In this document: in pieces, positions 1 through 42,800 of the stretch
How positions within the stretch are numbered: position 1 is the first letter of the stretch
How the letters are laid out: each line of letters begins with the position of its first letter
IMG/VR virus record: IMGVR_UViG_2703719347_000006
Location: 1 to 42,800 of that record
Length of the DNA: 42,800 bases
From: a virus
Taxonomy: Duplodnaviria; Heunggongvirae; Uroviricota; Caudoviricetes
Direction: 5' to 3' (one strand)
Notes under the pieces: model-generated
Told to the model about the DNA's origin: nothing
The model's database searches: none
Seen by the model: only the letters and a program-made list of their open reading frames with translations
Position numbers and translations under genes: made by a program

Positions 1-1053
1 CTAGTAGTAATGGTCATAACCTCCGCTTTCTCTTCTGGCTCTGGATGCTCTCACTCGTGCTTTTCTTAACATCCTTAACAGCGGGTGGGTTTGTACTTTG
101 TTCGAGTTTATTGTCTGTGAGGATAGTAACTCCCTGCGCTCTGTCTCTGCCTCTTTGGTGACCGCTATCACTGATAAATCCCAATCGTGTTTGCTAATTA
201 ACGGTGCTTGGAACGGGGTGATTGGTGAGCGATTTATGTCTTGTCGTTTCAATGTACGCTGTATCTGTCGCTTAACTTTGTAGTTGTCTTTCCTTGATGC
301 CTGAATGGCTTTTAGTATGCGTCTTACAGCATGAAAGCCAGTGATAGAAAGTGTTTCTTTTTTTATCTCATGCCGCGCCCAGCCATTCGAATAACCCCAA
401 ACGTTGGCATCTGACCAATCATATAGGCTCTTGCTCGCCTCTCTATTAAAGTCATTTAACTTAGTTTCGGGTTTTGCCATGTAATCAATCTGTTTACCTA
501 TACACCTTGTAGGCTCTGAATATTGCTGACCTTTCAAATCTAGATCCCACTGGGGAGGAACATTTGATGGGATTGCATTGTTTGCCAGTGTTACCCATTT
601 GCTGACAATTTTGCCTGCTTGCCCATTAATGCTTCTTTCGTTCACCATAATTATTGCGTGTACATGCGGCTCTGACTGGTGTTGAGCCCACTCCATGACG
701 TAAACCCACTGATTGCCTTTCGAAGTCAACCATCTGGTAAGTGCCTTTAACGCTTTGTTGAATTTCTCTGGCGTTGTTCCCTTAACGGGTCTGAAGGTAA
801 AGGAGTAGGGGATACCACTAGTTGATTCGACATCCAGAGTAAACAAAGCTCGCCTCATTGTACGCCATTTCTTCTTTGTCCAAGCTGGTGGTATGCAGTG
901 GTTAGCCTTTGATGATTGGCGTTTATTCTCCGCCTTTAATTCATTACGTTTGTGCGTAACTGATCTCACATAAGCTAATGTGCGACCATTGATGTGATTG
1001 ATTACGGCTTGTGATTTTGTGGATAGACTCGCGTCTTTATCGTATAATTCCAT
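1..1053 (-). CDS. Rolling-circle replication initiator-like protein (HUH endonuclease motifs)
   Basis: 350-aa ORF; motifs in canonical order FTLDV (motif I), HVHAII (HUH, motif II), DYMAKP (Y-x-x-K, motif III) with about 60-aa spacing; last visible gene of the leftward integrase operon. Confidence 0.45.
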   Translation of the reverse strand: MELYDKDASLSTKSQAVINHINGRTLAYVRSVTHKRNELKAENKRQSSKANHCIPPAWTKKKWRTMRRALFTLDVESTSGIPYSFTFRPVKGTTPEKFNKALKALTRWLTSKGNQWVYVMEWAQHQSEPHVHAIIMVNERSINGQAGKIVSKWVTLANNAIPSNVPPQWDLDLKGQQYSEPTRCIGKQIDYMAKPETKLNDFNREASKSLYDWSDANVWGYSNGWARHEIKKETLSITGFHAVRRILKAIQASRKDNYKVKRQIQRTLKRQDINRSPITPFQAPLISKHDWDLSVIAVTKEAETERRELLSSQTINSNKVQTHPLLRMLRKARVRASRARRESGGYDHYY

Positions 1054-1121
1054 GTGTAAAGTTCATATATTTCAATTGCTTCAAAGCCGACTCTCGCAAA
1101 GTCGGCTTTCTGCTTTGTCAA

Positions 1122-1508
1122 TCACAGGTATTTGGTTTCAATACCCTTGTAAACAGTTCTAAGCGTGTCTTCAGGCACTTTACCCACCAGCCCACGCAAC
1201 AACGACAACGTTATGTTTACCTTACGCAATGTCTTTACATATCTGGCGTTCGTCCTCCAGATCTTCAATGTTTCGTCTTTATCGCTGTGGTATGCTTCTA
1301 AATTGCGTTCTGTGACGTGATACGCCTCTGTTTTAAACTGCTCAACAGGAATTCCCCAATCGTTGCGTAACAGCGTTAAAACGCGACTACGTTCGTGATT
1401 TCCGGCTTTCCTTAATATGTCGTCAAACTCTTTTGGGGTAAGCTTCCTGCCACTTAGTAGGATATCGCGTATATTCGCGGCGACCTGAGAGCGTGTAAGA
1501 GTGCTCAT
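1122..1508 (-). CDS. Hypothetical protein (128 aa)
   Basis: ORF with 4-nt ATGA-type overlap with the upstream 64-aa gene (1505-1508), suggesting coupling; no recognisable motif. Confidence 0.4.
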   Translation of the reverse strand: MSTLTRSQVAANIRDILLSGRKLTPKEFDDILRKAGNHERSRVLTLLRNDWGIPVEQFKTEAYHVTERNLEAYHSDKDETLKIWRTNARYVKTLRKVNITLSLLRGLVGKVPEDTLRTVYKGIETKYL

Positions 1509-1699
1509 TTTCGTCCCCCCAGAAATCTGTCGGCAAATTGATCAAGGCTGGAGGCAAGCCACACCCGGCGCTTGCGTCCATTGATGGTCTGATTTATATA
1601 GGGAGGAAAGCTTCGGATATATCGCTTTAACTGATAGAAGCGTGACAGACAGACGCCAAGATATTCTGCTGCGTCTTTAGCGGTCAGGTAATTAATCAT
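1505..1699 (-). CDS. Small HTH DNA-binding protein (excisionase/MerR-like helix-turn-helix)
   Basis: 64-aa ORF with motif LTAKDAAEYLGVCLSRFYQL typical of HTH_17/excisionase-type DNA-binding domains. Confidence 0.4.
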   Translation of the reverse strand: MINYLTAKDAAEYLGVCLSRFYQLKRYIRSFPPYINQTINGRKRRVWLASSLDQFADRFLGGRK

Positions 1700-1780
1700 T
1701 TTATTCCCTTACTGTTGTACCAAAATGTAATATGGAGGAGACTTCCTGTCTCCCCAAATTACTCTACAATTTTTGTGCGA

Positions 1781-1972
1781 TTAAATCAGATCTATTACTA
1801 AGTAATCATCGCCAGAGGCAATGCCGATAGCTTTTCCACCGCTGGTGGATTTCACATCATAAACCCAGGTGCTGGTGCTCACCTTTTGTGGCTCTGATCT
1901 AATCAGTGCCGCGAAGGTTTCAAAATCAACATGGGTTACGTTCAGCTTTTGATTGGTAGGTTTCAACTGCAT
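1781..1972 (-). CDS. Hypothetical protein (63 aa)
   Basis: Short ORF co-oriented with neighbours; no motif recognised. Confidence 0.3.
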   Translation of the reverse strand: MQLKPTNQKLNVTHVDFETFAALIRSEPQKVSTSTWVYDVKSTSGGKAIGIASGDDYLVIDLI

Positions 1973-2020
1973 TCTTAATACCTAATAACGTATTGTTTGT
2001 ATCCTGTTTGTTTCTGTTCT

Positions 2021-2212
2021 TTAGTTACTACGCGATTCGGCTATACGTTGATCGATCCAGTCATCGATCTCGCTTTCAATAAAAGCTATTGCGCGAGCAC
2101 CAATCTTGACTGATTGGGGGAATTGTCCTCGGCTCATCAGAGCATATACCCACGCCTTGCTATAGCCAGTGCGTTTCAAAACCTCAGATAGCCGAATCAG
2201 CGACTTTTTCAT
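2021..2212 (-). CDS. AlpA-family transcriptional regulator (P4 Vis-like)
   Basis: 63-aa ORF; sequence LIRLSEVLKRTGYSKAWVYALMSRGQFPQSVKIGARAIAFIESEIDDWI matches the AlpA/Vis small HTH family pattern; downstream of a P4-type integrase. Confidence 0.6.
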   Translation of the reverse strand: MKKSLIRLSEVLKRTGYSKAWVYALMSRGQFPQSVKIGARAIAFIESEIDDWIDQRIAESRSN

Positions 2213-2368
2213 ATCTACCTCGTAATACGTTGCTTGACTATGTGAGATAGTAAATCATTGTTTTTTTAAGTTTTCTGTGAATTTGGAGAAAAAATTTTTG
2301 GGAATAGAATTACCCCAAATTGGGCGTTATTTTTTAGTTCTAACGCACAATTTGGGAACATCCTTCCT

Positions 2369-3115
2369 TTATTTTGGACGCTTTTTGGTTGCTTTTTTCT
2401 TAAATTTGGGGGCGTACTTATCCAAAGCGTTCGTTAGCAATCTCCGAAATGTATCTGGGTGGGTATCGCTGTCTTCATCGTTCCCGAATATTATGTTGTT
2501 TTCTATTACTTGGGCACTAACCCTATTGATACTAAGGTTTCCTCCACTATGGAAATCTTTGCTTGATTCAAATAAGGCAATCGCCATTCCGGCGATCATC
2601 TTTAAAGCCGTATCTTTTCCTCTCCAGTTTTGTTCTCTTTCTACTTTTTTTGACAGTGCTCCAATTTCTGGTTCGTTATCTGGAACATTCATATCCAGTT
2701 CTGGGAAGAAGTTCACAACCTCGGAGCGCTTGAAATAAAACGAATCGTAAGACCCATACCAATCATCCTCATCATCGTGATATAAAAAGTCTTCCCCTTT
2801 CCTAACGTTGAAAGTCCCTTCTTCCCCCGGTATCGGGCTCTCCCTGTATTCATGCCCCATAGCCAGAAGACCTAAAAACTCCACACACTGCTTTTCAAAG
2901 TCGTCATTAGTTGTAAAACCTGATACCCAATCGAACTGATAAAAGCCCAGCCCCCCTAAAGTATCTGGTTTAGCTTTGCTCAATCTGTAGTTACTTAAGA
3001 TAGCGGCAGCGATCATTCTTTCATTTTCATTGTTTAGTCTTGCCAGTTCGCTGATCAGATTACCAAACCAGATTTTATCTTCTGACTCGTTATAAAACGC
3101 ATCTAGTCCTGTCAT
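2369..3115 (-). CDS. Acidic hypothetical protein with basic C-terminal tail, translationally coupled to integrase
   Basis: ATG at 3115-3113 lies 1 nt after the integrase TAA stop (3119-3117); 248 aa from this ATG (ORF track gives a GTG start at 3124); D/E-rich core, C-terminal KFKKKATKKRPK; AT-rich by eye. Confidence 0.5.
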   Translation of the reverse strand: MTGLDAFYNESEDKIWFGNLISELARLNNENERMIAAAILSNYRLSKAKPDTLGGLGFYQFDWVSGFTTNDDFEKQCVEFLGLLAMGHEYRESPIPGEEGTFNVRKGEDFLYHDDEDDWYGSYDSFYFKRSEVVNFFPELDMNVPDNEPEIGALSKKVEREQNWRGKDTALKMIAGMAIALFESSKDFHSGGNLSINRVSAQVIENNIIFGNDEDSDTHPDTFRRLLTNALDKYAPKFKKKATKKRPK

Positions 3116-3116
3116 C

Positions 3117-4403
3117 TTAGTCACGGCGTGTTCTCCTTCCGAACTCGTAAGGGCTTATATGTATTTCTCGATTGGCGTCCAGATAATCTGCCCACCATTG
3201 AAGCATTAGTTTGCGCTCTTCTAAGTAATCAGCCTTGTGCTTGTAGGCTCTTTTAACGTCTTTATATTCTTTGTGGCTCATCTGGCGCTCTACTGCGTCC
3301 TCCTGCCACAAACCGGACTCCATCAGGGAACTACAGGCTGTGGCACGGAATCCATGTCCAGTTACGTCCTCTTGCGTGTTATAGCCCATTAAGCGTAATG
3401 CCTTGTTTACCGTGTTTTCACTCATCACGCCTTTGGTGTTTCTTTCATTCGGAAACACAACATCGTAGCTTCCGCTTAGTTCTCTCAACTGCTTTACAAT
3501 AGAAACAGCCTGACGGCTAAGAAGCACGATATGTTCGTCTTTTCCCGTTTTTGTGCCACGGGTGGAAAACCTCACACCATCGATAGGCTCTCTTTTTTTA
3601 GGGATAATCCACTCAGCCCGATCAAGGTCAAACTCTTTCCAACGGGCAAACCTTAACTCGCTTGAACGAACAAATGTCAACATGGTTAGCTCAATGGCAA
3701 GGCGGGTAAGAGGATTACCTTTAAAGCTGCCCAATCGAGTGAAAAAGTCTGGTAAATCTCTGGGATGTAGTGCGGCATGATGCTTAGTTTCATATTGCAT
3801 TAACCGGACATCGAGATCATTCGTGATGATTTCTGTCTTAATGCCGCTCAGACGGGCGCTATGTATGATGTCCTTAACTCGTTGTTTAAGTCGGTTGGCT
3901 GTATCGTGTTTCCCGGCGTCATCTACCTTCTTAAACAAAGGTAAAATTGTCATCGCCTCCAGTTTGCGAATATCCGAAGTGCCAATGTGAGGGAAAATAT
4001 ACATTTCAAGGCTTCTAAGTACGCGTTTTCGTTGGTCTTCGTTCCACATCTGGTGGCTTTCAACCCATTGACGTCCTATTGTCTCAAAAGTGAATGCGCC
4101 TTTTTCTTCTGCTTTTGCTGCTCTTTGCTCTGCTTTGGGATCTATCCCCTTGACTAACAACTTTTTGGCGTTGTCTCGTTTTTCTCTGGCGTCTTGTAAG
4201 CTAATGGTTGGATATACACCAAAAGCAAGTCTGTCTTCTTTCTTATCTGATGGGCGGCGATACTTCATTCGCCAATACTTCGACCCGGTCTGGGATACTT
4301 CAAGATAAAGACCACCACCATCAGACAATTTATAAGTTTTGTCTCGTGGCTTAGCTGCTTTGCACTGACGGTCTGTTAATTTGTTGAGGGTATTTCTGGA
4401 CAT
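3117..4403 (-). CDS. int: Tyrosine integrase, P4-type (arm-binding N-terminal domain)
   Basis: 428-aa ORF; N-terminus KLSDGGGLYLEVSQTGSKYWRMKYR typical of P4/CP4-57-type integrases; C-terminal catalytic region with HGFR...Y. Confidence 0.85.
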   Translation of the reverse strand: MSRNTLNKLTDRQCKAAKPRDKTYKLSDGGGLYLEVSQTGSKYWRMKYRRPSDKKEDRLAFGVYPTISLQDAREKRDNAKKLLVKGIDPKAEQRAAKAEEKGAFTFETIGRQWVESHQMWNEDQRKRVLRSLEMYIFPHIGTSDIRKLEAMTILPLFKKVDDAGKHDTANRLKQRVKDIIHSARLSGIKTEIITNDLDVRLMQYETKHHAALHPRDLPDFFTRLGSFKGNPLTRLAIELTMLTFVRSSELRFARWKEFDLDRAEWIIPKKREPIDGVRFSTRGTKTGKDEHIVLLSRQAVSIVKQLRELSGSYDVVFPNERNTKGVMSENTVNKALRLMGYNTQEDVTGHGFRATACSSLMESGLWQEDAVERQMSHKEYKDVKRAYKHKADYLEERKLMLQWWADYLDANREIHISPYEFGRRTRRD

Positions 4404-4655
4404 GTTGGGGGCACATATACAATCGAACCAGCAATGCCCCTAATTATGCCCCATAGATTTACTTGATTTCAATAGACGGAAATGGACGTCATGAGAATAA
4501 AATCTCTTTATTTTTATATGTTTACATGGGATTTATAGACAATGGTAGACGTTGGTGTACAGCGGGATGGTGTCCCCTGCAGACATCTACTTGAGGCAGC
4601 AGGGGATTGATTAGAATGGTGTTTTTGAGATGTGAGAAATATTTTACCCGCTATT

Positions 4656-4856
4656 TTACCCATTGGCGCGGCTTAAGAGCTTATTTTTGAATTCACAATG
4701 GTCACGATATAACCATCTTGCTCGTCCGTGGATAACTTTGGCTTTAGGCAGGTCGCCGGACTTAATCCGGTCATAGATGAAGGTCTTACCGAAGCCAGTA
4801 TCGGCCATGATGAATTTCAAATCAACTAGTGAATCAGGCTGTAGTTCGTGTTGCAT
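4656..4856 (-). CDS. xis: Excisionase-like small DNA-binding protein
   Basis: 66-aa ORF from internal ATG at 4856-4854 (Met75 of the track ORF 4656-5078); position between integrase and early recombination genes. Confidence 0.5.
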   Translation of the reverse strand: MQHELQPDSLVDLKFIMADTGFGKTFIYDRIKSGDLPKAKVIHGRARWLYRDHCEFKNKLLSRANG

Positions 4857-16808: not shown

Positions 16809-16883
16809 GGGTCAGTCGTATAAAGGTCATTACGGAAGGCTGTTAACCTTCTTATCGTGGTTCGAGTCCACGCTGTCCCGCCA
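16809..16883 (+). tRNA. tRNA-Asn (anticodon GUU), by manual cloverleaf folding
   Basis: 75 nt: acceptor gggtcag/ctgtccc (one mismatch), anticodon stem gaagg/ccttc, loop ctGTTaa, T-arm cgtgg-TTCGAGT-ccacg, discriminator g and CCA. Confidence 0.6.
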
Positions 16884-16888
16884 AATAT

Positions 16889-16964
16889 GCTGGTTTAGCT
16901 CCAATGGTAGAGCAGTCGCCTTGTAAGCGAATGGGTAGCGGTTCAAGTCCGTTAACCAGCACCA
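16889..16964 (+). tRNA. tRNA-Thr (anticodon UGU), by manual cloverleaf folding
   Basis: 76 nt: acceptor gctggtt/aaccagc, D-arm gctc/gagc with GG in loop, anticodon loop ctTGTaa, T-arm agcgg-TTCAAGT-ccgtt, discriminator a and CCA. Confidence 0.7.
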
Positions 16965-27602: not shown

Positions 27603-28748
27603 ATGGCACAGGGCTTGCCTGTATCAAACGTTGTTAATGTTGATGTGATCATGTCGCCGCGTGCAGCATCAGGGCGAAATTTTGGTGCATTACTCATTCT
27701 CGGCCCGTCCACAATCATTCCGGTAAGTGAGCGCATTCGTCGTTATTCTGCCGCGGAAGATATTGGAAAAGATTTTGGCGTGGAATCACCAGAATATAAA
27801 GCTGCGCAGGTGTTTTTCTCACAATCACCGAAACCTCAGGAGGTTTTTGTTGGTCGTTGGGTGAAAACGAAGGGAGACAGCGAACAGGCCACGACTGAGA
27901 CGCTGGAGCAGGCTGTGAATGCCATGCTCGATTATACTTCATGGTATGGGCTGGGGATTGCAGACGATGAAGATATTCCGGATGCAGACTGGCTGAAAGT
28001 GGCTGCGGCGATAGAATCCTCTTCTGTAAGTCGTATTCTGGCGATTACGACAAGCGATGAGAAATGCCTGCAGACTGCATCCAGCGATGATTTGGCATCA
28101 AAACTGAAAACCGCCGGATATTCACGCAGTTTTATTCAGTATTCATCGGGTAATAAATACGCTGCGTTATCTGCATTTGGCCGGGCATTCACGGTTAATT
28201 TCAATGGCAGTAATACCGCGATTACGCTCAAGTTTAAGCAGGAGCCGGGTGTCGGGTATGAAACACTGACAGTCAGCCAGGCATCGGCACTTGATGCAAA
28301 AAACTGCAATGTGTTCGTGTACTACCAGAATGATACAGCTATCCTCCAGCAGGGAGTGATGGCTAACGGCGATTTCTTTGATGAACGCCACGGCCTGGAC
28401 TGGTTACAGAATTATGTGCAGACCAACCTCTATAACCTGCTTTATACCAGCGCCACGAAAGTTCCCCAGACTGAAGCCGGTATTACCCGACTGTTATCAA
28501 ATGTTGAAAAATCACTGGATCAGGCCGTTCAGAATGGACTGATTGCTCCGGGCGTATGGAACGGTGGCGACCTTGGTCAGTTGTCATCAGGTGACACGCT
28601 GCCCAAAGGTTATTACGTATACGCCCAGCCGCTGGATGAACAGGCACAATCAGAACGTGAAGCCCGTAAGGCTCCGGTGATTCAGGCTGCAATAAAACTT
28701 GCAGGCGCGGTTCATTACGCTGACGTACAGATTAACGTTGTTCGCTAA
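27603..28748 (+). CDS. Putative tail sheath protein
   Basis: 381-aa ORF followed by small tube-like gene, chaperone and tape measure; gene order typical of contractile tails. Confidence 0.5.
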
Positions 28749-32712: not shown

Positions 32713-33777
32713 ATGTCACAGAACTGGATGAGACATTTCGAGCTGCAGCTTGTGGACGGGAACGGTAAGGGAATTGAGCTAAGTGATTTCAAAGTCACCT
32801 TTACGATCGACTGGTTCAACATCAGCAGCGCGTCCCGGGTAGGGACTATCAAAATTTATAACCTTTCGGCAGATACTGTGAACCGAATTACCGGGCAGGA
32901 GTTTTCGAAAGTGCGGCTGATTGCCGGTTACGACGGTATCGCGCCGGAGGTGGCAGCAAGCGACGTCGGGACTGTGCGGGAAGTTGACGCGGCGGACGTG
33001 GGCCAGAGTGATGGCCGCAACTACGGGCTGATTTTCAGCGGAGAAATTCGCTACTCGGTCACAGGAAAAGACAGTCCGGTTGATACCTACGTCCTGATTC
33101 AGGCAGCAGATACTGATCTGGCATTTGCCACCAGTATAACCTCGCAGACGCTGGCGGCCGGTTACACGGTCGCAGATGTGAACCGTGCGCTGATGAAAGA
33201 CTTTGAGGCCAAAGGCGCGACCGAAGGACTGACGCCTGAAATGCCTGCTACCGTATTCCCTCGAGGGCGGGTGCTGTTCGGCATGACACGGCATCTTATG
33301 GATAACGTGGCCGGACAATGTGGCGCAACATGGCAATTTGTGGACGGTCAGCGCCAGATGGTGGCGAATAACGAGTATGTTCACGACGCGATTGTGCTCA
33401 ACAGCGCCACCGGGCTTATCGGCATGCCGCAGCAGACTATCGGCAACGGTGTAAACGTCCGCGCTCTTATTAATCCGAACATCCGGGTTAACGGGCTTAT
33501 TCAGCTGGATCAGGCTTCCGTGTACCGCACCGCGCTGTCGAACAATGATATTGCGATGGCTGGTGGGCAGATCACCGACCAGAACACGGACGGAAATATC
33601 ACGCTCAGCGGCACCACAGCACAACCTGCCAGCATCGCAACGGATGGCGTTTATATTGTGCGCGGGATTATGTACACTGGCGATACAAGGGGCCAGGCGT
33701 GGTACATGGATATGATGTGCGAAGCGCGTGGCGCGGCGGATCTTGTTTCCTCATCAGCGAGGGAAAGAGGGCTTTAA
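32713..33777 (+). CDS. Putative baseplate hub protein
   Basis: 354-aa ORF in baseplate cluster. Confidence 0.4.
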   Translation: MSQNWMRHFELQLVDGNGKGIELSDFKVTFTIDWFNISSASRVGTIKIYNLSADTVNRITGQEFSKVRLIAGYDGIAPEVAASDVGTVREVDAADVGQSDGRNYGLIFSGEIRYSVTGKDSPVDTYVLIQAADTDLAFATSITSQTLAAGYTVADVNRALMKDFEAKGATEGLTPEMPATVFPRGRVLFGMTRHLMDNVAGQCGATWQFVDGQRQMVANNEYVHDAIVLNSATGLIGMPQQTIGNGVNVRALINPNIRVNGLIQLDQASVYRTALSNNDIAMAGGQITDQNTDGNITLSGTTAQPASIATDGVYIVRGIMYTGDTRGQAWYMDMMCEARGAADLVSSSARERGL

Positions 33778-34109
33778 TGAAACGGTTATGTTTGGCGTTA
33801 GTTATGATGGTTACTGCTCCGGCGATGGCTGCAATTCAGTGCGGCAACTACACGATGACCGGTGACGGAATGACTGTTATTAACGGTGAAACTGTCACAT
33901 CACAGAAGATAAAATTTCTGGGAAAAGATGGTGACTATTCAAACATAAAAATGGACATGGGCCTGATGCCTTCCCGTGATGGTAACAATTACGGCTTTGA
34001 GTTTGTGAAACGTAACGGAAAAGCTTTCCTGAATGTCCAACTGCTGCAGAACAGCATGGATGCGCCGAAAATCATCGGTTCCTTTCCATGCAAAAAGATT
34101 GTTGATTAA
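33777..34109 (+). CDS. Secreted (periplasmic) small protein, moron candidate
   Basis: 110 aa from ATG 33777 (TAATG overlap with baseplate gene); signal peptide MKRLCLALVMMVTAPAMA with AMA-A cleavage motif; two Cys in mature part. Confidence 0.45.
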   Translation: MKRLCLALVMMVTAPAMAAIQCGNYTMTGDGMTVINGETVTSQKIKFLGKDGDYSNIKMDMGLMPSRDGNNYGFEFVKRNGKAFLNVQLLQNSMDAPKIIGSFPCKKIVD

Positions 34110-34126
34110 TCACTCGTAATTATAAT
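34099..34126 (+). promoter_or_regulatory. Putative sigma70 promoter for the 79-aa membrane-protein gene
   Basis: -35 TTGTTG (34099-34104), 16-nt spacer, consensus -10 TATAAT (34121-34126). Confidence 0.4.
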
Positions 34127-34162
34127 GTGATACTTCTACTTTCACGATAAGGAATTTGTCGC

Positions 34163-34402
34163 ATGTTCGGATTTGATAAATTAATAACTCCAAAAATCAT
34201 CAACGTTCTGTATGGCATCACAATGTTACTTCTGGTTGTTGCCGCCATTATAACGTTTGTTAATGGGAAGGCTGCTGGCGCTTTAGTGCTTTTGTTATGT
34301 GCTGTATTTTGCCGAATATTCTTTGAGTGCATCATGGTTTCATTTAAAAACAATGAGTATCTTCGCCGAATAGCTGAAGCGTTAGAAGCAAACAAGCAGT
34401 AA
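34163..34402 (+). CDS. Small two-helix inner-membrane protein, candidate superinfection exclusion moron
   Basis: 79-aa ORF with hydrophobic segments IINVLYGITMLLLVVAAIITFV and GALVLLLCAVFCRIFFECIMV; own promoter and terminator; AT-rich. Confidence 0.5.
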   Translation: MFGFDKLITPKIINVLYGITMLLLVVAAIITFVNGKAAGALVLLLCAVFCRIFFECIMVSFKNNEYLRRIAEALEANKQ

Positions 34403-34420
34403 TGAAACTTCAATAATGAA

Positions 34421-34442
34421 CCCGCCACCCGGCGGGTTTTTT
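34421..34442 (+). terminator. Rho-independent terminator
   Basis: Stem cccgcc (34421-34426) / ggcggg (34431-34436), loop accc, then tttttt. Confidence 0.7.
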
Positions 34443-35217: not shown

Positions 35218-35570
35218 TGCGATACAGACGCGAAGACGCCGATGGCGATTATACCTTTGGCAGCGGTGATGACACCTGGCTGATTAACTCACCGGAGGCC
35301 GTGGCGCAGGCGGTAAAAACGCGATTCGAATTGTGGTATGGGCAATGGTTTCTCGATACCACCGAAGGGACTCCGTGGATCCAGTCTGTGCTCGGTAAGC
35401 AGAAGCCGGAAACCTACAACCTGGCGATCCGTAAGCGCATCCTCGAAACGCGTGGCGTTAAATCAATCCTCTCTTTCAATACGACGGTGGATACCACGAC
35501 CCGACGTGTCATGTTTTCCGCTGAAATCGACACTCTTTATGGAATAACGACTGTTACATCGGAGGCGTAA
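35217..35570 (+). CDS. Baseplate wedge protein (gpW/gp25-like)
   Basis: 117-aa ORF in the canonical V-W-J-I order. Confidence 0.4.
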   Translation: MRYRREDADGDYTFGSGDDTWLINSPEAVAQAVKTRFELWYGQWFLDTTEGTPWIQSVLGKQKPETYNLAIRKRILETRGVKSILSFNTTVDTTTRRVMFSAEIDTLYGITTVTSEA

Positions 35571-36766
35571 TGGCTCTGAACCTTGATTCTCTTGGTTTAT
35601 CTGCAAAGGTAACCGCAGAGGGGATCAGTGCGCCTGATTATCAGACGATACTCAGCACCCTGATTAGCTATTTTCAGCAGATTTATGGCAGTGATGCCTA
35701 CCTCGAACCGGACAGCAAAGACGGCCAGATGGTCGCTCTGGTGGCTCTGGCCATTCACGATGCCAACAACACGGCCATTTCTGTTTACCGGTCATTTTCT
35801 CCGTCGACGGCGCTGGACGATGCATTAACCAGTAACGTCAAAATTAACGGCATCACTCGCCGTGCTGCGACAAACTCTACGGTCGATGAGCTGATTGAAG
35901 GCGAAGCCGGAACGTTGATCACAAACGGGTCTGTGAAAGATGCCAACGGTATCATCTGGAATCTTCCTGCTCAGGTGACAATTGGTATTGATGGGACGGT
36001 TATTGCTACAGCGACGTGTTCTGTTGCTGGTGCTGTGGCGGCCCCTGCCGGGTCAGTCAATAAGATAAACACCCCGACACGTGGCTGGGTATCAGTAACT
36101 AACCCTCAAGCGGCTACCGTTGGCGTTGCTGCCGAAACAAATGCTGAATTGCGTGTCCGGCAATCACAGAGCGTTGCTTTACCATCTCTGACGCCGTTTG
36201 AGGCGGTAGATGGTGCGATAGCAAATATCAGCGGCGTAACGCGACACAAGCTGTATGAGAACGATACAGATACCACTGATGCAAATGGCCTGCCGCCGCA
36301 CTCAATCGCGGCCATTGTAGAAGGTGGTGATGCGACAGTCATTGCGAACAGCATTCGTGGTGTGAAAGGGCAGGGCGTAACACCCTACGGTAGTACGGTG
36401 ATTGTTGTGCCTGATAAGTACGGAAACCCTCACCCGGTAGGTTTTTCAAGGCCGGTCGATGTACCCATTTACGTCAAAATCACTATCGAGCCCCTTACGG
36501 GTTACACATCCCAGGTCGGCGAAGAGATAAAGGCGGCTGTATCTGCCTACATTAACTCTCTGGCAATCGGCGCCAGCGTTCTTCTCAGTCGCGTTTACTC
36601 ACCGGCTAACCTTGGTGTTGTCAGTGGAGGTAATGCCAGGTATTACGACATTACCGAGTTGCTGATCGGGACGTCTGCCGGTGGCGTAGCCGCGGCAAAC
36701 GTGGATATTGCCTTTGACCAGTCAGCATCCTGCGCCGTCAGCAATATTAATCTGGTGGTCTCATGA
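35570..36766 (+). CDS. Baseplate J-like protein
   Basis: 398-aa ORF between W-like and I-like genes. Confidence 0.5.
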   Translation: MALNLDSLGLSAKVTAEGISAPDYQTILSTLISYFQQIYGSDAYLEPDSKDGQMVALVALAIHDANNTAISVYRSFSPSTALDDALTSNVKINGITRRAATNSTVDELIEGEAGTLITNGSVKDANGIIWNLPAQVTIGIDGTVIATATCSVAGAVAAPAGSVNKINTPTRGWVSVTNPQAATVGVAAETNAELRVRQSQSVALPSLTPFEAVDGAIANISGVTRHKLYENDTDTTDANGLPPHSIAAIVEGGDATVIANSIRGVKGQGVTPYGSTVIVVPDKYGNPHPVGFSRPVDVPIYVKITIEPLTGYTSQVGEEIKAAVSAYINSLAIGASVLLSRVYSPANLGVVSGGNARYYDITELLIGTSAGGVAAANVDIAFDQSASCAVSNINLVVS

Positions 36767-37536
36767 GCAGATACACTGACCGCATAACAAACTACCACGC
36801 CGGTAAACCAAAGTTCTTTGCCCACGTCGACCTGTCCACCAGGCCACTGAGTGATGTTTCCGATGCCATGTCACGGCTAATACCCGATTTTGACATTGAT
36901 ACCGCCGTAGGCGTGCAACTCGACGTTGTGGGCGAATGGGTTGGTCGTTCCCGTCGCGTGGCTACACCGGTAACCGGGATTTATTTTTCGTGGGACACCG
37001 AACGGGTTGGCTGGGACCAGGGGATTTGGCAGGGACCATATGACCCAAACGACGGTTTTATCGATCTAAGCGATGAAATATATCGGCTAATTCTGAAGGT
37101 GAAAGTGGCGATAAACAACTGGGATGGTCAGAACGATTCGCTGCCTTCAATTCTTGATGCCGCCCTTGCCGGGTCCGGGATCCGCATGGCTATTGTCGAC
37201 AACCAGGATATGTCGATTTCTATCTGGATACTCGGTGACCCATCGGTAGCCCTAAGTGAAATAGACCGGTTAATTCTGGATAGCGCCGTCAATAAAGGCC
37301 CCTTTATCGCATTACCGGCAGGTTACGTACCATCGCGCTATGACATTAACCCGATTGACCAGGTTAACAGCGAGCTATGGTGGGCGATTCAAAACGGTTA
37401 TATGACGGTTAAGGCCGCCGGAGTTCGTGTCCGTGAAATAGAGACCGTCAGTGATGGTTATCAGTTTTTTGGCTTCGATATCGAAAATGACTATATCGCT
37501 GGTTTCGACCGCGGGTCATGGGGAGAGAGATTTTAA
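36763..37536 (+). CDS. Baseplate/tail protein I-like
   Basis: 257-aa ORF; its C-terminal two-thirds has a paralog at 41825-42300. Confidence 0.45.
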   Translation: MSRYTDRITNYHAGKPKFFAHVDLSTRPLSDVSDAMSRLIPDFDIDTAVGVQLDVVGEWVGRSRRVATPVTGIYFSWDTERVGWDQGIWQGPYDPNDGFIDLSDEIYRLILKVKVAINNWDGQNDSLPSILDAALAGSGIRMAIVDNQDMSISIWILGDPSVALSEIDRLILDSAVNKGPFIALPAGYVPSRYDINPIDQVNSELWWAIQNGYMTVKAAGVRVREIETVSDGYQFFGFDIENDYIAGFDRGSWGERF

Positions 37537-37673
37537 TGGCGACTAACGATTTTAAGCGCTTCGCTACTGGTAGTGGGGCAAACGTATTATCTCAGGCAGA
37601 CTATGAGTCACTATCTGCCCTGGCATCAGGGAAGGGCGCTAACGGCTATGTCATCATTGAGGAGTACGCATAA
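37536..37673 (+). pseudogene. Truncated tail-fibre N-terminal remnant (45 codons)
   Basis: MATNDFKRFATGSGANVLSQADYESLSALASG aligns with the N-terminus of the fibre ORF starting at 42300, then diverges and stops. Confidence 0.45.
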
Positions 37674-37870
37674 TGGCAGGTAATTACGCAGTCATTGAAA
37701 GTGGAATAGTTAAAAACATCATAATTGCGGAAAGCGGTTATGAATATGATGGTGCTGAACTTATCGAATATCCTGAAAGTGTATTTTGCCAGCCTGGGAT
37801 GTTTTATAACAAGGCAGACGGGCTATTTTACGATGATAAAGAATATTCAAAAATAAATAGCAAGAATTAA
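37673..37870 (+). CDS. Hypothetical protein (65 aa)
   Basis: ATG overlaps stop of the fibre remnant; followed by a terminator. Confidence 0.35.
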   Translation: MAGNYAVIESGIVKNIIIAESGYEYDGAELIEYPESVFCQPGMFYNKADGLFYDDKEYSKINSKN

Positions 37871-37894
37871 GTCACTAAATTACCAGAAAGCAAA

Positions 37895-37916
37895 CTGACC
37901 TTATGGTCGGTTTTTT
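37895..37916 (+). terminator. Rho-independent terminator
   Basis: Stem ctgacc (37895-37900) / ggtcgg (37905-37910), loop ttat, then tttttt. Confidence 0.55.
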
Positions 37917-37928
37917 ATTGGGGCGACT

Positions 37929-39788
37929 ATGAGTGAATACGATACCGGCAATCCTGTGCCGTCTGCATCCATGCCTGATGCATGGGATAATATGCAGTCT
38001 ATTGACAAGTTCGTTAATAGCAGTGATGAAACCATTACCACACGCACAGGCAAACAGTTAGATACTTTGCATGGCGTTAATGTTAAAGCGGACAACCAGC
38101 TAACGCAGCAGCAAGCAGATTTTGAAACATCGCAAGAAGAAAGGGATGCTGTAGTTGAGGAAACCAGGCAAAACCTGATCCCTCTGAGCAAGCAATACAT
38201 GACGCTTGCTGATGCACAGGCAGATATTGCTAATATCCCTGCGGGAAGTGCCACTTATTACCGCAGCCCGGATGATAGCGCGCTGGCTATTGAGGTAATC
38301 AATAACGCCGGGACGTTACAACCTACCGGACGAAAAATGCCATCCATGGACAGCATCATTTCGGCTTTGGGTGTGTACTTCGACGGTAGCAACCCAGACC
38401 TGCTGATTGGCTTTAAAGACGTGGATAACAAAGTTTTCGCGGCATGGGACCTGTCGGGAAAATATATTGGGGATCTGGAGTATGCGTCATTTGATGAGAC
38501 GGGACGGATGATTGCAGATCTGGCAGTGCTGGGTGATATGCAGATAAGCCAGGCGTATCAGAACCCGGATGTAGCTATGTATATCCTCGATGATGATGGG
38601 CTTGTGCTGCTGGAGGTCCCATTCGTCGAGTCGCAGAGCGACGTCAACGAGGAAATAGAGGCAATCAATACCAGGCTGGATGTGTTTGTTCGTGATGACG
38701 GCATTTTAAAGTCGGAGTTTTACGGCCTCAATTTCATGTCGGAGACACGTCGCGCATTGATGATGGCAGAAGCTAAGGAGGGGCAATTTGTCATCAATAT
38801 CATTGGGAACTCGTGGGTAGCTAACGAGTGGAACCTTCCGCGTCGTTTAACTCAGGTCCTGCAAGACCGATTCGGTGATGCAGGCGCCGGATTTGCTGGT
38901 TACAACCGTAACTTTGCCCATCCAGGACGTGCATTTCTAGCGATTCAATCGGGAACGTGGACTGAGGAGACTGTTACGACACCTACAGCCACAAACTTCG
39001 GCCCGGCTGGCTCACAGGGGATCACCTCTACCGCAGGTGCCTCTATGGCATTCCAGTCTCTGACTGGTGATACCTCAGCGGCTATCTACCACAATGGCAG
39101 CTCCAGCGTCAGCCCTGTAATCAAAATCAAGTACAAGGACAATGTCACGGGCGACCAGACTGCTGAAACACAGGTTACCCTTTCTGGTACGGGTGTAGTC
39201 AGAACTGAGTTGCCCGTACCGCCTGTGACAGGAAACTGGACGGCTACGCTGACGCTCGTTTCAGGAACACTGGCGTTCTGTGGCATCGAGCTGAAAAAAA
39301 GTACCCCGGGTGTTCGTGTCAATAAATTAGGTACTGGCGGCTCTACCTGGCGGCAATGGACAACCCTGAACCGTGCCGGGTGGGTGCAGGGCATCACGCC
39401 GCTGGCGGCAAACCTGAATATCCTGCTGGAGTCCGTCAACGGCGCGTACAGCTACGATGCCGACTACGAGGCGACCTATACAACGGAAATGGCATCACGC
39501 GTGAGGTCAGCCTCTGCCTTCAGCGACGTTCTGGTTATCTCGCCACCACAAACACTGGGCACACCAACCTACTCGTTACGCGACTTCGCATACAAGCTGA
39601 GAGGTATCGCTGGCTCTATTCAGGCAGGGCATATCGATCTGCAACAGGTTTTCGGACAAAACATCGCAGAGTATACGGACAATGGGAAGCGCTACATCCT
39701 GTCATCAGATGTAAACCATCCAACATATCCCGCCGGGCAATGCGTTATTACTGAAACTGTACTCCGCGCCATCCTTTCTGCTTTTTAA
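37929..39788 (+). CDS. Tailspike/tail fibre with C-terminal SGNH-hydrolase-like (esterase) domain
   Basis: 619-aa ORF; block-I-like INIIGNSW and block-V-like DVNHPTY (D-x-x-H) near the C-terminus. Confidence 0.5.
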   Translation: MSEYDTGNPVPSASMPDAWDNMQSIDKFVNSSDETITTRTGKQLDTLHGVNVKADNQLTQQQADFETSQEERDAVVEETRQNLIPLSKQYMTLADAQADIANIPAGSATYYRSPDDSALAIEVINNAGTLQPTGRKMPSMDSIISALGVYFDGSNPDLLIGFKDVDNKVFAAWDLSGKYIGDLEYASFDETGRMIADLAVLGDMQISQAYQNPDVAMYILDDDGLVLLEVPFVESQSDVNEEIEAINTRLDVFVRDDGILKSEFYGLNFMSETRRALMMAEAKEGQFVINIIGNSWVANEWNLPRRLTQVLQDRFGDAGAGFAGYNRNFAHPGRAFLAIQSGTWTEETVTTPTATNFGPAGSQGITSTAGASMAFQSLTGDTSAAIYHNGSSSVSPVIKIKYKDNVTGDQTAETQVTLSGTGVVRTELPVPPVTGNWTATLTLVSGTLAFCGIELKKSTPGVRVNKLGTGGSTWRQWTTLNRAGWVQGITPLAANLNILLESVNGAYSYDADYEATYTTEMASRVRSASAFSDVLVISPPQTLGTPTYSLRDFAYKLRGIAGSIQAGHIDLQQVFGQNIAEYTDNGKRYILSSDVNHPTYPAGQCVITETVLRAILSAF

Positions 39789-39797
39789 GGTACTTTT

Positions 39798-40697
39798 ATG
39801 ACAACTATTTTTCAGGCACCAGTTCCAAGCAATAACCCAGCGCTGCAGTATGCGGTGCCAGATAACCTCTTGAAAGGGTACGGGACGAAAGAGGGGACTA
39901 CTGATGGGGTATATCTGTTCCGCCTCGATGACAAACGATCGTTTCCTCTACAGGCCGCGCCGACGAGCAATGCTGAAGGCGCAATCGTGAATCTGGCTGA
40001 TAGTGTTAGCGCGCAGGCATCCCTTGGTGGCGACGTGTCTGCATTCGTGTGGAACGGAACACGTAAATCACTGGCGATGAACAGTAAAAGCGCACCGTGT
40101 TACCTGCAGAGCGCCAGTAACTTTATGGCCCGATTTGATGCCACCACCCACCCGTCGAAACTCCAGTATTTTGCGCTTGGAATGTACGTGCGTATTCCGT
40201 CAGCTGATGATTTTGTCGCGGTCAGTACCAACTACTCAGGTATCTGCGGGACGGCGGAATCCCTGACACCGGCAAACGAGTTTGGCGGAATTGCTTTCAC
40301 TAACGTTAACGGCACAAAGGCGATCAATGCCATTCGCGGGACTGACGGCGGCGCGCTGCGCACAGTAGCTGTCCCGGCGACTAATTTCCTCGGCAAAGTG
40401 TGCCTGGTCGTCGTCTACCGGGACGCCGCAGGGATGCACCTCTATGTCGAGGCAACCGACGGGACAAAGGCTTCTGCGATGACCGCGATTGCGAATGTCC
40501 CTGTTTTGACAACGACCATGACCAGCCGGAGCCTGAAATTCGGCGTTACTGGTTTTTACTCCGGTAGCCTCGTCTATAAACATGAGTTTTTTGGCGGCTG
40601 GTTAATCGACCTGGAAACTATCACCGTTTCTGATATCCCTGCGTTTGCATCTGCCGACCTGGCCAGACAGATCGCCAGAGGGTGGATGACAAGCTAA
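39798..40697 (+). CDS. Hypothetical protein (299 aa) downstream of tailspike
   Basis: ORF 10 nt after the tailspike stop; no motif recognised. Confidence 0.4.
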   Translation: MTTIFQAPVPSNNPALQYAVPDNLLKGYGTKEGTTDGVYLFRLDDKRSFPLQAAPTSNAEGAIVNLADSVSAQASLGGDVSAFVWNGTRKSLAMNSKSAPCYLQSASNFMARFDATTHPSKLQYFALGMYVRIPSADDFVAVSTNYSGICGTAESLTPANEFGGIAFTNVNGTKAINAIRGTDGGALRTVAVPATNFLGKVCLVVVYRDAAGMHLYVEATDGTKASAMTAIANVPVLTTTMTSRSLKFGVTGFYSGSLVYKHEFFGGWLIDLETITVSDIPAFASADLARQIARGWMTS

Positions 40698-40777
40698 AAA
40701 CCATTGTGTGTTAATTTGTTGTCTGCCTGAAATGATTTTATCTGTCAGCCAACTATTGATCTGCCACTCACTTAAAA

Positions 40778-40797
40778 CTACTGTATATAAAAACAGT
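40778..40797. promoter_or_regulatory. LexA (SOS) box
   Basis: TACTGTATATAAAAACAGTA: CTGT-N8-ACAG with AT-rich spacer, 20 nt upstream of the 79-aa ORF. Confidence 0.7.
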
Positions 40798-40816
40798 ATT
40801 TATCGGAGGGCAGATC

Positions 40817-41056
40817 ATGCTTAGGCAGTCAGACATCGCCGCGGCTTTCCGCGAGTCCATTTTGCGCAGTTCCAAGGGGTTCCAGTACCTTCACACCCGC
40901 GACTTCGTTACTGCGCTTCGCCGGCGCGGCATTCATTTTACCGAGGTGGAGGCTAACGCCTGGATCGCTCGCGAGCAGACGTATTTTGTCGATAAGACGC
41001 CTGACCATAGCGAAAACAGGCTGTGGATGATGGCCAACATGGGGAGGGTGATCTAA
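40817..41056 (+). CDS. SOS-regulated hypothetical protein (79 aa)
   Basis: ATG 40817 with GGAGGG RBS just downstream of the LexA box; overlaps the next gene (TAATG). Confidence 0.45.
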   Translation: MLRQSDIAAAFRESILRSSKGFQYLHTRDFVTALRRRGIHFTEVEANAWIAREQTYFVDKTPDHSENRLWMMANMGRVI

Positions 41057-41373
41057 TGGGCTTTCCTTCGCCGGCGTCAGACTACGTTGAGCAGCGTCTG
41101 TCTGTTAACTCGATCTGCAATGTAGGCCCAAACACGCTAGTTTTCGAGCGTTCTGGTGGTTACGTTGTACTGGATATCTCCCTGAAGCCAAAGCAGGGTA
41201 GTCAGGTTCTGATCCAGCACGGCGGCGGGACGGAGCTTGCCACGCTGAGAGGGCGGTCGCTGATAACCGAAGATGGCGAAGCAATTGAAGGTGAGGCCTT
41301 GGATGATGTCACTGTCGCAGGCGTCGTGACGCACATCATTTGTGATGTGCGAAGCGATAGCCTGGCGGTTTAA
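41056..41373 (+). CDS. UmuD'-like protein (HumD-like, lacking the RecA-cleavage N-terminus)
   Basis: Starts MGFPSPASDYVEQR, aligning with UmuD from Gly25; catalytic Ser and Lys of UmuD appear replaced (SGGYV, ATLRGR). Confidence 0.65.
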   Translation: MGFPSPASDYVEQRLSVNSICNVGPNTLVFERSGGYVVLDISLKPKQGSQVLIQHGGGTELATLRGRSLITEDGEAIEGEALDDVTVAGVVTHIICDVRSDSLAV

Positions 41374-41547
41374 CAATGAAAGAGTGGTGCGCACCGTAAC
41401 TACAACAAGTATGTCCGCAGTTATGGTGCGATACCTTGCGGGTTGAGTAAACGGCCAGTGTTCATTTCTGGATATCTGCTCGCAGATCTTGGCATCTAAG
41501 GAGGTAGCGCAGATGGAACCTGACCCTGGAAGAGTTCGCGTAATGGC

Positions 41548-41820
41548 TTACTGGACTGCACGACCATCGATGTAATCAGCCCACCACTGCATCATCTACC
41601 TGCGCTTATCGAGATACTGAGCATGGTTGTAAATCCCGCGCACAGATCCGCCGTTGGCATGTGCCAGTTGCACTTCAATGGCGTCGGCAGGCCATTCGTG
41701 CTCGTTCATAATCGTGCTGAATTCATGCCTGAATCCGTGACCGCTTTCCAGACCTTCATAGCCGATTTGTTTGATCACAAGCAATACCGCGTTCTCGCAG
41801 ATTGGCTTCTTCTTATCGTT
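41548..41820 (-). pseudogene. Integrase remnant (C-terminal catalytic region only, with in-frame TAG)
   Basis: HGFRHEF...LAHANGGSVRGIYNHAQYLDKRR then TAG (41598-41596), then in-frame MMQWWADYIDGRAVQ to TAA (41550-41548); homology begins abruptly near 41820. Confidence 0.6.
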
Positions 41821-42300
41821 GAGCCAATTAGCGGCGTTTATTTCAGCTGGGACACTGACGGGCTCGGATATGACCAGGGCATCTGGCAAGGGCCATATGA
41901 TCCTGATTCTGGCTATACGACGCTAAGCGATGAGACGTACCGCATCATTCTGAAAGCGAAGATTGCGATTAATAACTGGGACGGGCGGAACGACTCGCTG
42001 CCACCAATTCTGGACGCTGCAACTGCTGGCTCTGGCCTGAAGATGCAGATCGTCGACAACCAGGACATGACGATATCGGTCTGGGTGTTCCCTGAGACTG
42101 ATATTTCTGATGTGTCTCTCGAACTGATCGCCGCTATCAAACAGGGCTATCTCACCGTTAAATCAGCTGGCGTATGGGCCGGTGATGTTGAAACGCCTTC
42201 GGTAGAAACACCGTCAGAAGGCTCTAAATTCTTTGGGTTTGATATGGATAACGAATACATCGGCGGGTTCGATGTTGGAGCATGGGGGACAATACTCTAA
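41623..42300 (+). pseudogene. 5'-truncated paralog of the gpI-like gene, fused to unrelated upstream sequence
   Basis: Residues from about 68 onward (GVYFSWDTDGLGYDQGIWQGPYDP...) parallel 36763-37536; the first ~67 codons are antisense to the integrase remnant. Confidence 0.45.
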
Positions 42301-42800
42301 TGGCAATAAACAACTTTAAACCTTTCGCGCTTGATCCGAACGCTAACGTCACCTCACAAGCTGACTGGGAAGCACTTCCGGCTCTGCTTTCAGGGTTTAC
42401 GGCAGGTAAAGCATCCAGCGCACAGGTCAACAAAGCTATTCGGCAAGCCAGCTTTATCGCGGCAGCGTTGGCGCAGTACACCGCCAACAAAAGCGGGCTG
42501 GATGTGCTTGATGATGGAGACCTGAACGGGTTTATATCCAAAATGGGGACCGCTTTCGGGAAGGATTTCCAGGCCCTTGATGCCACGCTGACGGCATTAG
42601 CTGGGCTGGAAACCGGTGCAAATAAACTCCCGTATTTCACTGGAAATGATACAGCTGCGCAGACTGATTTGACTTCTGTTGGCCGTGACATTATCGGGAA
42701 AAAGACTATTGCTGACATTCTCACATACCTTGGTTTGGGAGAAACGATAAATAAAGCCTCCGGAGCTATGCAGAAATCGGCTAATGGATCTGATATTTCT
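42300..42800 (+). CDS. Tail fibre protein, N-terminal part (runs off the window)
   Basis: Frame open from ATG 42300 to the window end; N-terminus MAINNFKPFALDPNANVTSQADWEALPALLSG. Confidence 0.55.
   Translation, partial: MAINNFKPFALDPNANVTSQADWEALPALLSGFTAGKASSAQVNKAIRQASFIAAALAQYTANKSGLDVLDDGDLNGFISKMGTAFGKDFQALDATLTALAGLETGANKLPYFTGNDTAAQTDLTSVGRDIIGKKTIADILTYLGLGETINKASGAMQKSANGSDIS

Follow-up and report, generated by a model that had tools for sequence, protein, structure and literature searches.

KplE1 (CPS-53) of Escherichia coli K-12 is a prophage located at argW, and its IntS-TorI module also occurs in HK620, Sf6 and CUS-3. It is a 10-kb remnant without structural genes, and the sequence of its 16-nt attachment core has been published (PMC2951348). 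Here we describe the tail-fibre locus of a prophage that uses the same type of module, contained in a 42,800-nt stretch of DNA from a tailed virus of the Caudoviricetes (positions 1 to 42,800 of IMG/VR record IMGVR_UViG_2703719347_000006; this whole stretch is referred to as the window). The prophage shares with KplE1 its location at argW, the identical 16-nt core at both ends, the position of intS next to the tRNA gene and the position of torI at the far end. Unlike KplE1, it spans ~42 kb, possesses a contractile-tail region and harbors an internal integrase fragment that marks a second, partly deleted phage. The locus very likely represents the right end of a temperate prophage that is a hybrid of two related argW phages, which we call A-type and B-type after the layouts of their tail genes.

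Mosaicism of lambdoid phages is established knowledge, and the exchange of tail-fibre modules at conserved linkers is said to have been described by Haggard-Ljungquist in 1992 and Sandmeier in 1994 for P2, Mu, P1 and lambdoid phages. As in those phages, the C-terminal part of a receptor-binding protein (RBP) and an accessory gene are swapped together between conserved flanks in the prophages compared here, and a unit derived from the locus is inserted at the YLGLGE linker of a fibre gene on a phage-plasmid. Unlike those exchanges, the plasmid unit drags with it a scar composed of an integrase end (int') and a truncated DUF2612 gene (DUF2612'), from which the donor can be recognised and a circular or tandem intermediate deduced. 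Mosaic joints of temperate phages are ascribed to illegitimate or relaxed homologous recombination, a subject to which two publications relate (PMC3945230, PMC2327257). The locus resembles such joints in having a sharp boundary inside the conserved baseplate gene J, which is consistent with homologous exchange, together with one homology-free joint. It differs from them in that most are described at gene borders without duplication, whereas here two genes are cut and both parents are still readable. In addition, the DUF2612 protein of Pseudomonas phage K8 (GP075) has been reported to contact the J-like protein and the fibre (PMC9887876). The DUF2612 genes of the window belong to the same Pfam family and likewise occupy the interval between the J/gp47-like and fibre genes, whereas the second copy found here is an N-terminally truncated fragment.

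The prophage extends from 4567 to argW and is composed of lambdoid early genes, contractile-tail late genes and the KplE1-type IntS/TorI module. Its distal att core is located at 4567..4582 (plus strand), where ATGGTGTCCCCTGCAG is the reverse complement of the KplE1 core. The 16-nt core CTGCAGGGGACACCAT is exactly conserved at both prophage ends, namely at 4567-4582 in the window and at the 3' end of tRNA-Arg in strain EJN001 (position 28129 of the EJN001 locus, L001), as is characteristic of KplE1-type prophages. A complete intS (385 aa) adjoins tRNA-Arg in EJN001, 5CRE51 and ECO3183, outside the window, and torI, annotated in 5CRE51, occupies a position equivalent to 4656-4856, beside the distal core and at the opposite end from intS. 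EJN001 and EBJ001 are 99.5-99.9% identical to the window over 16962-42800, with a sole gap of 194 nt (37598-37791). The preliminary description, which was made from the window alone, had raised the possibility that a second tail-fibre set follows to the right, and this is what EJN001 contains: the truncated DUF2612 gene is succeeded by a 299-aa gp53-like fibre gene (fibre_B), a Caudo_TAP-type tfa gene (tfa_B), the complete intS on the minus strand, tRNA-Arg (argW) and yfdC. Moreover, the annotation of relatives indicates that the prophage encodes a Rad52-family recombinase.

Two parental layouts account for the gene content of the locus. In the B-type layout, found at argW in ECO3183, the order is J, DUF2612 (226 aa), gp53-like fibre, tfa, intS and tRNA-Arg. 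In the A-type layout, found in ST540 and strain 361, DUF2612 (257 aa) is followed by a 289-aa glycine-rich fibre, a 65-aa open reading frame (ORF), a large enzyme RBP, an accessory gene, a 79-aa gene and a UmuD-like gene, and in ST540 these lead to intS and tRNA-Arg. In strain 361 (NZ_CM132949.1 1973817-1985247), the A-type tail/RBP module with the UmuD-like pair ends by yecD/aspS and lacks intS; the A-type late/RBP module has therefore been combined with a different integration site. Both DUF2612 alleles are represented in the window, 4.3 kb apart. DUF2612_A (36763..37536, plus strand) is the full 257-aa A-type baseplate-wedge gene (PF11041, E 1.4e-46, 159 bits, profile positions 1-165). DUF2612_B' (41822..42300, plus strand) retains the 3' 160 of the 226 codons of the B-type wedge gene, has no start of its own and matches PF11041 with 97 bits over positions 63-177 of the 181-position profile, as expected of a truncated member. 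Both matches exceed the gathering score of the model. At the nucleotide level, 36980-37227 aligns with 41837-42084 at 71% identity (E 7.5e-30), and 37444-37564 aligns with 42210-42328 at 68%. At the protein level, residues 69-254 of DUF2612_A align with the second copy at 50% identity (E 4e-64), with an indel of ~34 residues. The second copy thus reads as an N-terminally truncated, divergent allele and not as a recent duplicate. These alignments bear out the duplicated gpI-like/fibre junction of the preliminary description at both levels. Its statement that the last two-thirds of the gene reappear agrees with the 160 retained codons, although the repeat starts at 41822 rather than 41825, and the label gpI-like holds as a positional analogy only, since the family is DUF2612 and no P2 gpI-type family is found among the Pfam matches.

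The joint between the two phages lies at 41821..41822, where the end of an integrase gene abuts the second base of codon 66 of DUF2612_B. Every intact intS allele matches the window up to 41821, and the intact B-type DUF2612 genes of PK8277 and ECO3183 match it from 41822. The joint is regarded as illegitimate because it contains no microhomology, and an exact search for the core found a single copy in the window and no internal att site at the joint. What remains on the integrase side, int' (~41548..41821, minus strand), is the terminal ~92 codons (~278 nt) of a tyrosine integrase gene of the IntS type. With the corresponding 3' part of the complete EJN001 intS, which lies 3.3 kb further downstream, it shares 96.8% identity, and the integrase remnant reported earlier is thereby confirmed. 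A complete tyrosine recombinase combines a full catalytic domain with an N-terminal arm-binding domain; int' does not, PGAP calls it a pseudogene missing its N-terminus, and it carries TAG at 41596-41598 where intact alleles have GAA. The 3' end of int' and the flank downstream of it are A-type-specific, agreeing with the sequence that accompanies the UmuD-like gene in ST540.

The left mosaic boundary is located within the baseplate J/gp47 gene (35570..36766, plus strand). From at least 27979 up to ~35.4 kb, ECO3183 and the window agree at ~100% identity; from ~35.78 kb, inside J, the value drops to 55-66%, and from 41833 it is back at 98.9%. As judged from this profile, the window is a B-like late region followed by a ~6-kb A block (~35.6/35.8 kb to 41821) that continues into the terminal part of a B prophage.

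Within the A block the fibre gene is reduced to a stub. Fibre_A (37536..37673, plus strand), whose N-terminus matches the tail-fibre family phrog_11303, retains 32 codons from the start and 13 from the end of the gene for the 289-aa A-type fibre, joined by a 732-bp in-frame deletion. This deletion is mediated by a short repeat, because the missing 732 bp sit between two 10-nt direct copies of GGCATCAGGG. The 45-codon frame of the preliminary description is therefore present, but it arises by internal deletion and is not a gene cut by an insertion. The 65-aa ORF that follows (37673..37870, plus strand; phrog_18617) is the native partner 3' of the A-type fibre and is 100% identical in ST540; its product has no match in Pfam or NCBIfam. 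Only EC31, P21_SE1_04.20 and 98219, each with the int'/DUF2612' junction, were found to have the 732-bp deletion joint, and the full 289-aa-type fibre is kept in 12 A-type prophages without it. In EJN001, EBJ001 and 5CRE51, which likewise possess the junction, the additional 194-nt deletion (37598-37791) destroys the 65-aa ORF. The 732-bp lesion would have preceded the 194-nt one, because the window equals EJN001 without the latter and is 99.9% identical to it on either side. The 194-nt deletion has identical end-points and ~2-nt microhomology in these three strains and in a metagenome contig. 5CRE51 and EJN001 share it although they differ strongly in cargo and in their left parts, which are 83% identical, so recombination between prophages has reassorted this lesion.

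Of the B-type set, the window contains the first 167 codons of the 299-aa fibre_B (42300..42800, plus strand), whose open frame runs off its end. In EJN001, the complete fibre bears a Gp53-like_C domain (PF21882, E 2.5e-8) and is followed by a tfa assembly gene of the Caudo_TAP family (PF02413, E 6.6e-31), and the frames of both fibre_B and tfa_B are intact in all composites. The stop codon of DUF2612' overlaps the start of fibre_B as in clean B-type prophages. Scans for promoters and terminators around fibre_B gave consensus-level hints only. The N-termini of the A and B fibres are 67% identical over the first 75 residues. Two fibres competing for one docking site could have rendered the A fibre and its small partner dispensable, so that both decayed, although the association of this loss with the junction is suggestive only.

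Of 5,426 complete E. coli genomes, 9 match a 300-nt probe across the joint over its entire length; these appear to be six chromosomes (EJN001, EBJ001, 5CRE51, EC31, 98219 and P21_SE1_04.20) and three phage-plasmids. The joint is also present in two metagenome contigs. The joint is identical in all eleven cases, including the A at 41822, and would have a single origin; no match to the junction string was found among GTDB species representatives. The findings on phage-plasmids refer to p92_MLI108-2 (NZ_CP116996.1, ~58.9-66.1 kb), a 92-kb element with RepB, ParM, portal, head and tail genes, and MLI108K1 and Iso00270 appear to hold the same structure. In p92_MLI108-2 the order is fibre_B C-terminus, tfa_B, int'|DUF2612' and fibre_B N-terminus, which is a circular permutation of the 2,155-bp chromosomal unit lying between the two integrase 3' ends. 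The unit is inserted at the duplicated YLGLGE linker of a 1,446-aa fibre gene, giving two chimeric fibres; in strains E8 and D72, whose fibre genes are uninterrupted, the sequences that flank it directly adjoin each other. The permuted order cannot come from a linear double crossover, but it can come from a circle or tandem copy that arises when int' recombines with intS. It is conceivable, though improbable, that DUF2612'-fibre_B-tfa_B between its integrase repeats acts as a recombination-mobilised fibre cassette, which loops out as a 2.15-kb circle and, through one homologous crossover, enters the integrase or fibre genes of phages that are not related, as apparently occurred in the phage-plasmid. 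If so, phage lineages would repeatedly exchange receptor-binding genes by way of such scars, and the truncated wedge fragment might also aid the docking of the imported fibre.

Taken together, the breakpoints and parental layouts make it probable, to a high degree, that one illegitimate recombination joined the right end of an A-type phage to the middle of DUF2612 in a B-type argW prophage. In the simplest sequence of events, which we propose, A and B phages would have been co-resident at argW, either because both integrated site-specifically in tandem or because A entered a resident B prophage by homologous recombination. A ~38-kb deletion from within the A-type integrase to within DUF2612_B would then have removed the internal att site. 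The A block contributes DUF2612_A, the glycine-rich fibre, its 65-aa partner, the tailspike and accessory gene, the LexA-boxed moron and its own integrase 3' end; beyond the joint come the B-type fibre, tfa, intact intS and attL/tRNA-Arg. The partial duplication would accordingly be a by-product and not a device. The resulting lineage would have possessed two fibres with similar N-terminal docking domains, fibre_B perhaps being expressed and used in the virion, and the A fibre would have decayed, by the 732-bp deletion first and by the 194-nt deletion later in some members. The enzyme-RBP cassette would have been swapped on by homologous recombination at conserved flanks. Finally, the two integrase 3' ends now form direct repeats around DUF2612'-fibre_B-tfa_B, and recombination between them can release the 2.15-kb circle. 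Of the two alternatives offered in the preliminary description, the junction with a second related prophage that had suffered an internal deletion is thus essentially supported.

Several observations weigh against this reconstruction. The A parent is absent at high identity from the collections, the best junction-free A-type prophage being ~94% identical. The ~100% identity of ECO3183 left of 35.4 kb fits two histories equally: the A block may have recombined into a resident B prophage, or the A parent may already have had that late region. The immunity and replication modules of EJN001 and ECO3183 differ, and comparison of whole prophages separates neither sub-route. An undeleted tandem intermediate was not found among the genomes compared, in which no dedicated search for it was made, and a search with the junction string found the joint in no sequenced phage isolate or IMG/VR contig. 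The association between the junction and the loss of fibre_A may reflect one lineage instead of selection. Moreover, int' is identical to the intS_B of the same genome over 41600-41783 (L001 26860-27043) and differs from it on both sides, a pattern that is consistent with a later gene conversion, which has to be assumed.

This last identity is also what would be expected if the repeat had begun as a tandem duplication of a 2.15-kb B-type segment, from mid-DUF2612 to mid-integrase, with the first copy later replaced by the A block through crossovers in J and int'. Tandem duplications are frequent spontaneous rearrangements in bacteria, and both the phage-plasmid and metagenome contig L011 have tfa_B directly 5' of int'|DUF2612', as such an origin predicts. 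However, that context occurs in none of the six junction chromosomes, four of which were read directly. The plasmid copy of int' resembles intS_B only near its stop codon, is identical to the int' of the window next to the joint, and resembles the A-type ST540 allele at five positions (41635, 41680, 41686, 41784 and 41791), including the two diagnostic positions nearest the joint. This pattern fits an A-like int' that later recombined with intS_B, and favours an A-type origin of the broken integrase; a primary duplication is accordingly judged unlikely. Less likely still is a functional dual-fibre design, in which DUF2612_B' would be expressed as an adaptor that docks fibre_B on the A-type baseplate and the arrangement would be under selection. 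The intact fibre_B and tfa_B, the preserved stop/start overlap, the reported interaction of the phage K8 protein with the tail fibre (PMC9887876) and the persistence of the joint in prophages with different early regions and cargo are all compatible with it. Nevertheless, the fragment has no native start, its candidate upstream starts lack a clear ribosome-binding site (Shine-Dalgarno sequence), the adjoining int' has gained a nonsense codon, and the tail system of the plasmid is unrelated, so that the fragment can be no more than a passenger there. With fibre N-termini that are 67% identical, an adaptor would not be needed.

The other alternative of the preliminary description, replacement of a receptor-binding module that truncated the fibre, fails on the parental layouts: in ST540 and strain 361, everything from the 65-aa ORF to the UmuD-like gene is native and lies 3' of an uninterrupted gene for the 289-aa fibre. 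A foreign cassette inserted after fibre codon 45 by an integrase-bearing element would explain why an integrase fragment stands at the right edge of the intervening DNA, and the RBP C-terminus and accessory gene are truly exchangeable. Yet the fragment is the 3' end of the phage's own argW integrase, and neither att sites nor terminal repeats were found around the block. This explanation was rejected as highly improbable on the A-type layouts and on the stub, which keeps both ends of the fibre. An assembly artefact, through a collapsed or chimeric repeat, had been raised earlier as a possible source of the repeat, and the existence of a repeat is all that speaks for it. With an indel and no more than 71% identity between the copies, and with the same joint recurring in two metagenome contigs and nine complete genomes of different national and laboratory origin, the chance of an artefact is practically negligible. 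Programmed fibre switching of the Mu Gin, P1 Cin or diversity-generating retroelement kind was likewise rejected: no significant inverted repeats flank the locus, and the only recombinase sequence there is a truncated pseudogene.

The A block carries a receptor-binding cassette, and the 65-aa, 619-aa and 299-aa ORFs are arranged as previously described. A terminator-like hairpin followed by a T run (37892..37913, plus strand; consensus scan only) separates the 65-aa ORF from the gene of the 619-aa tailspike-like RBP (37929..39788, plus strand). The N-terminal anchor of this protein, from residue 1 to ~138, is common to many RBPs. Its C-terminal part is predicted to be an SGNH-type carbohydrate O-acetylesterase with a beta-sandwich insert. 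The SGNH-like motifs noted earlier are conserved as block I G293-x-S295 and block V D594-x-x-H597: G293, S295, W296 and H597 are invariant and D594 is nearly invariant among 15-16 homologues. The protein aligns end to end with an SGNH-annotated homologue, GNSW lying opposite GDSW. It has no match to the Pfam GDSL models even at E<=10, although the RBP variants of P21_SE1_04.20 and strain 361 do match PF13472 and PF00657, and a sequence search of the PDB with the protein returned nothing. The AlphaFold model has a mean pLDDT of 57.8, with the C-terminal domain mostly at 70-85. Foldseek places this predicted domain closest to the peptidoglycan O-acetylesterase Ape1 (4k3u and 8gkd, E 2e-13 to 2e-11) and then to CE2 esterases, and the model displays an SGNH alpha/beta/alpha fold (TM 0.55-0.59, normalised by target). 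The RBP thus resembles Ape1 and the CE2 SGNH O-acetylesterases with an inserted beta-sandwich in its predicted C-terminal fold and in its G-x-S and D-x-x-H motifs, and differs from them in lacking a Pfam GDSL match, in having GNS instead of GDS in block I and in being fused to a phage RBP anchor. Esterase tailspikes are also known from phages, such as G7C gp63.1. Its nearest full-length esterase-RBP relatives (76-96% identity) come nearly all from Klebsiella pneumoniae and K. quasipneumoniae. The A-type J/DUF2612 DNA is likewise 96.6-97.4% identical to Klebsiella prophages vs ~91-94% to E. coli ST540. This closeness of both RBP and J/DUF2612 suggests a recent exchange between the genera.

The accessory gene (39798..40697, plus strand) encodes a 299-aa protein without a match in Pfam or NCBIfam and is exchanged together with the RBP C-terminus. 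Its counterparts by position are 14-19% identical to each other, too divergent for homology to be called. Composite and A-type prophages that are nearly identical elsewhere diverge in the variable cassette (38345..~40754, plus strand), all relatives agreeing with the window as far as 38344, at RBP residue ~138, and again from ~40755. Within the cassette, 5CRE51 encodes a 798-aa protein, P21_SE1_04.20 a 561-aa SGNH protein and ST540 a TolB-like protein. The swap of this cassette is a genuine replacement and is independent of the duplication.

To the right of the cassette lies a two-gene moron, located between the tail genes and the integrase, which is kept beside the integrase in E. coli and Klebsiella prophages. 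The LexA-box consensus CTGTATATAAAAACAG (CTGT-N8-ACAG; 40781..40796, plus strand) is perfect, is the sole zero-mismatch match in the 42.8 kb and stands 21 nt upstream of the 79-aa gene (40817..41056, plus strand; phrog_3893), whose product has no Pfam or NCBIfam match. The next gene (41056..41373, plus strand) encodes a 105-aa UmuD'/HumD-like protein of the S24 family (phrog_3469, E 6.9e-46), which scores 51 bits against NCBIfam HumD, under the curated cut-off, and appears to lack the N-terminal cleavage segment. The box would overlap the promoter of the pair, a candidate member of the LexA (SOS) regulon, and the LexA-controlled module proposed earlier is accordingly upheld by its sequence features.

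Other features of the window were also recorded. Positions 1-4566 belong to a separate small element abutting the distal att core, which encodes a 350-aa rolling-circle Rep-like protein (1-1053, minus strand), small HTH/DNA-binding proteins, a 251-aa ORF and a 428-aa tyrosine recombinase (3117-4403, minus strand). The 9.4 kb to the left of this element in 5CRE51 contain no further argW core. Genes for tRNA-Asn (GTT) and tRNA-Thr (TGT) occupy 16809-16964, just 3' of the Q antiterminator region. The baseplate operon contains a moron slot at 33699-34428 that holds a 136-aa signal-peptide protein and a DUF4282 membrane protein in the window and EJN001; in 5CRE51 this slot (L002 40880-42431) is occupied by the gene of a P22 Ant-like antirepressor together with two Arc-family genes. 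The GC profile of the locus displays no module-specific shift. The best phage-database match bears the label Wanchaivirus, a genus of the Hendrixvirinae that we take to be a lambdoid siphovirus genus; this fits poorly with the contractile-tail late region, and the label was not used for classification.

The event described here is ordinary phage mosaicism of a known kind, unusual only in its readable history and in the passage of its scar into a phage-plasmid, and it reveals no new mechanism or system. For annotation, it accounts for the pseudo-integrase and for the 'second' DUF2612 gene that PGAP calls real. The locus provides an example of the reshuffling of receptor-binding genes in which parents, breakpoints, fibre decay and cassette swaps are all readable from sequence. 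Its scar serves as a lineage marker, recording that tail-fibre DNA moved from a chromosomal argW prophage into a phage-plasmid. Moreover, host range may depend on a fibre that is encoded past the apparent end of the prophage.

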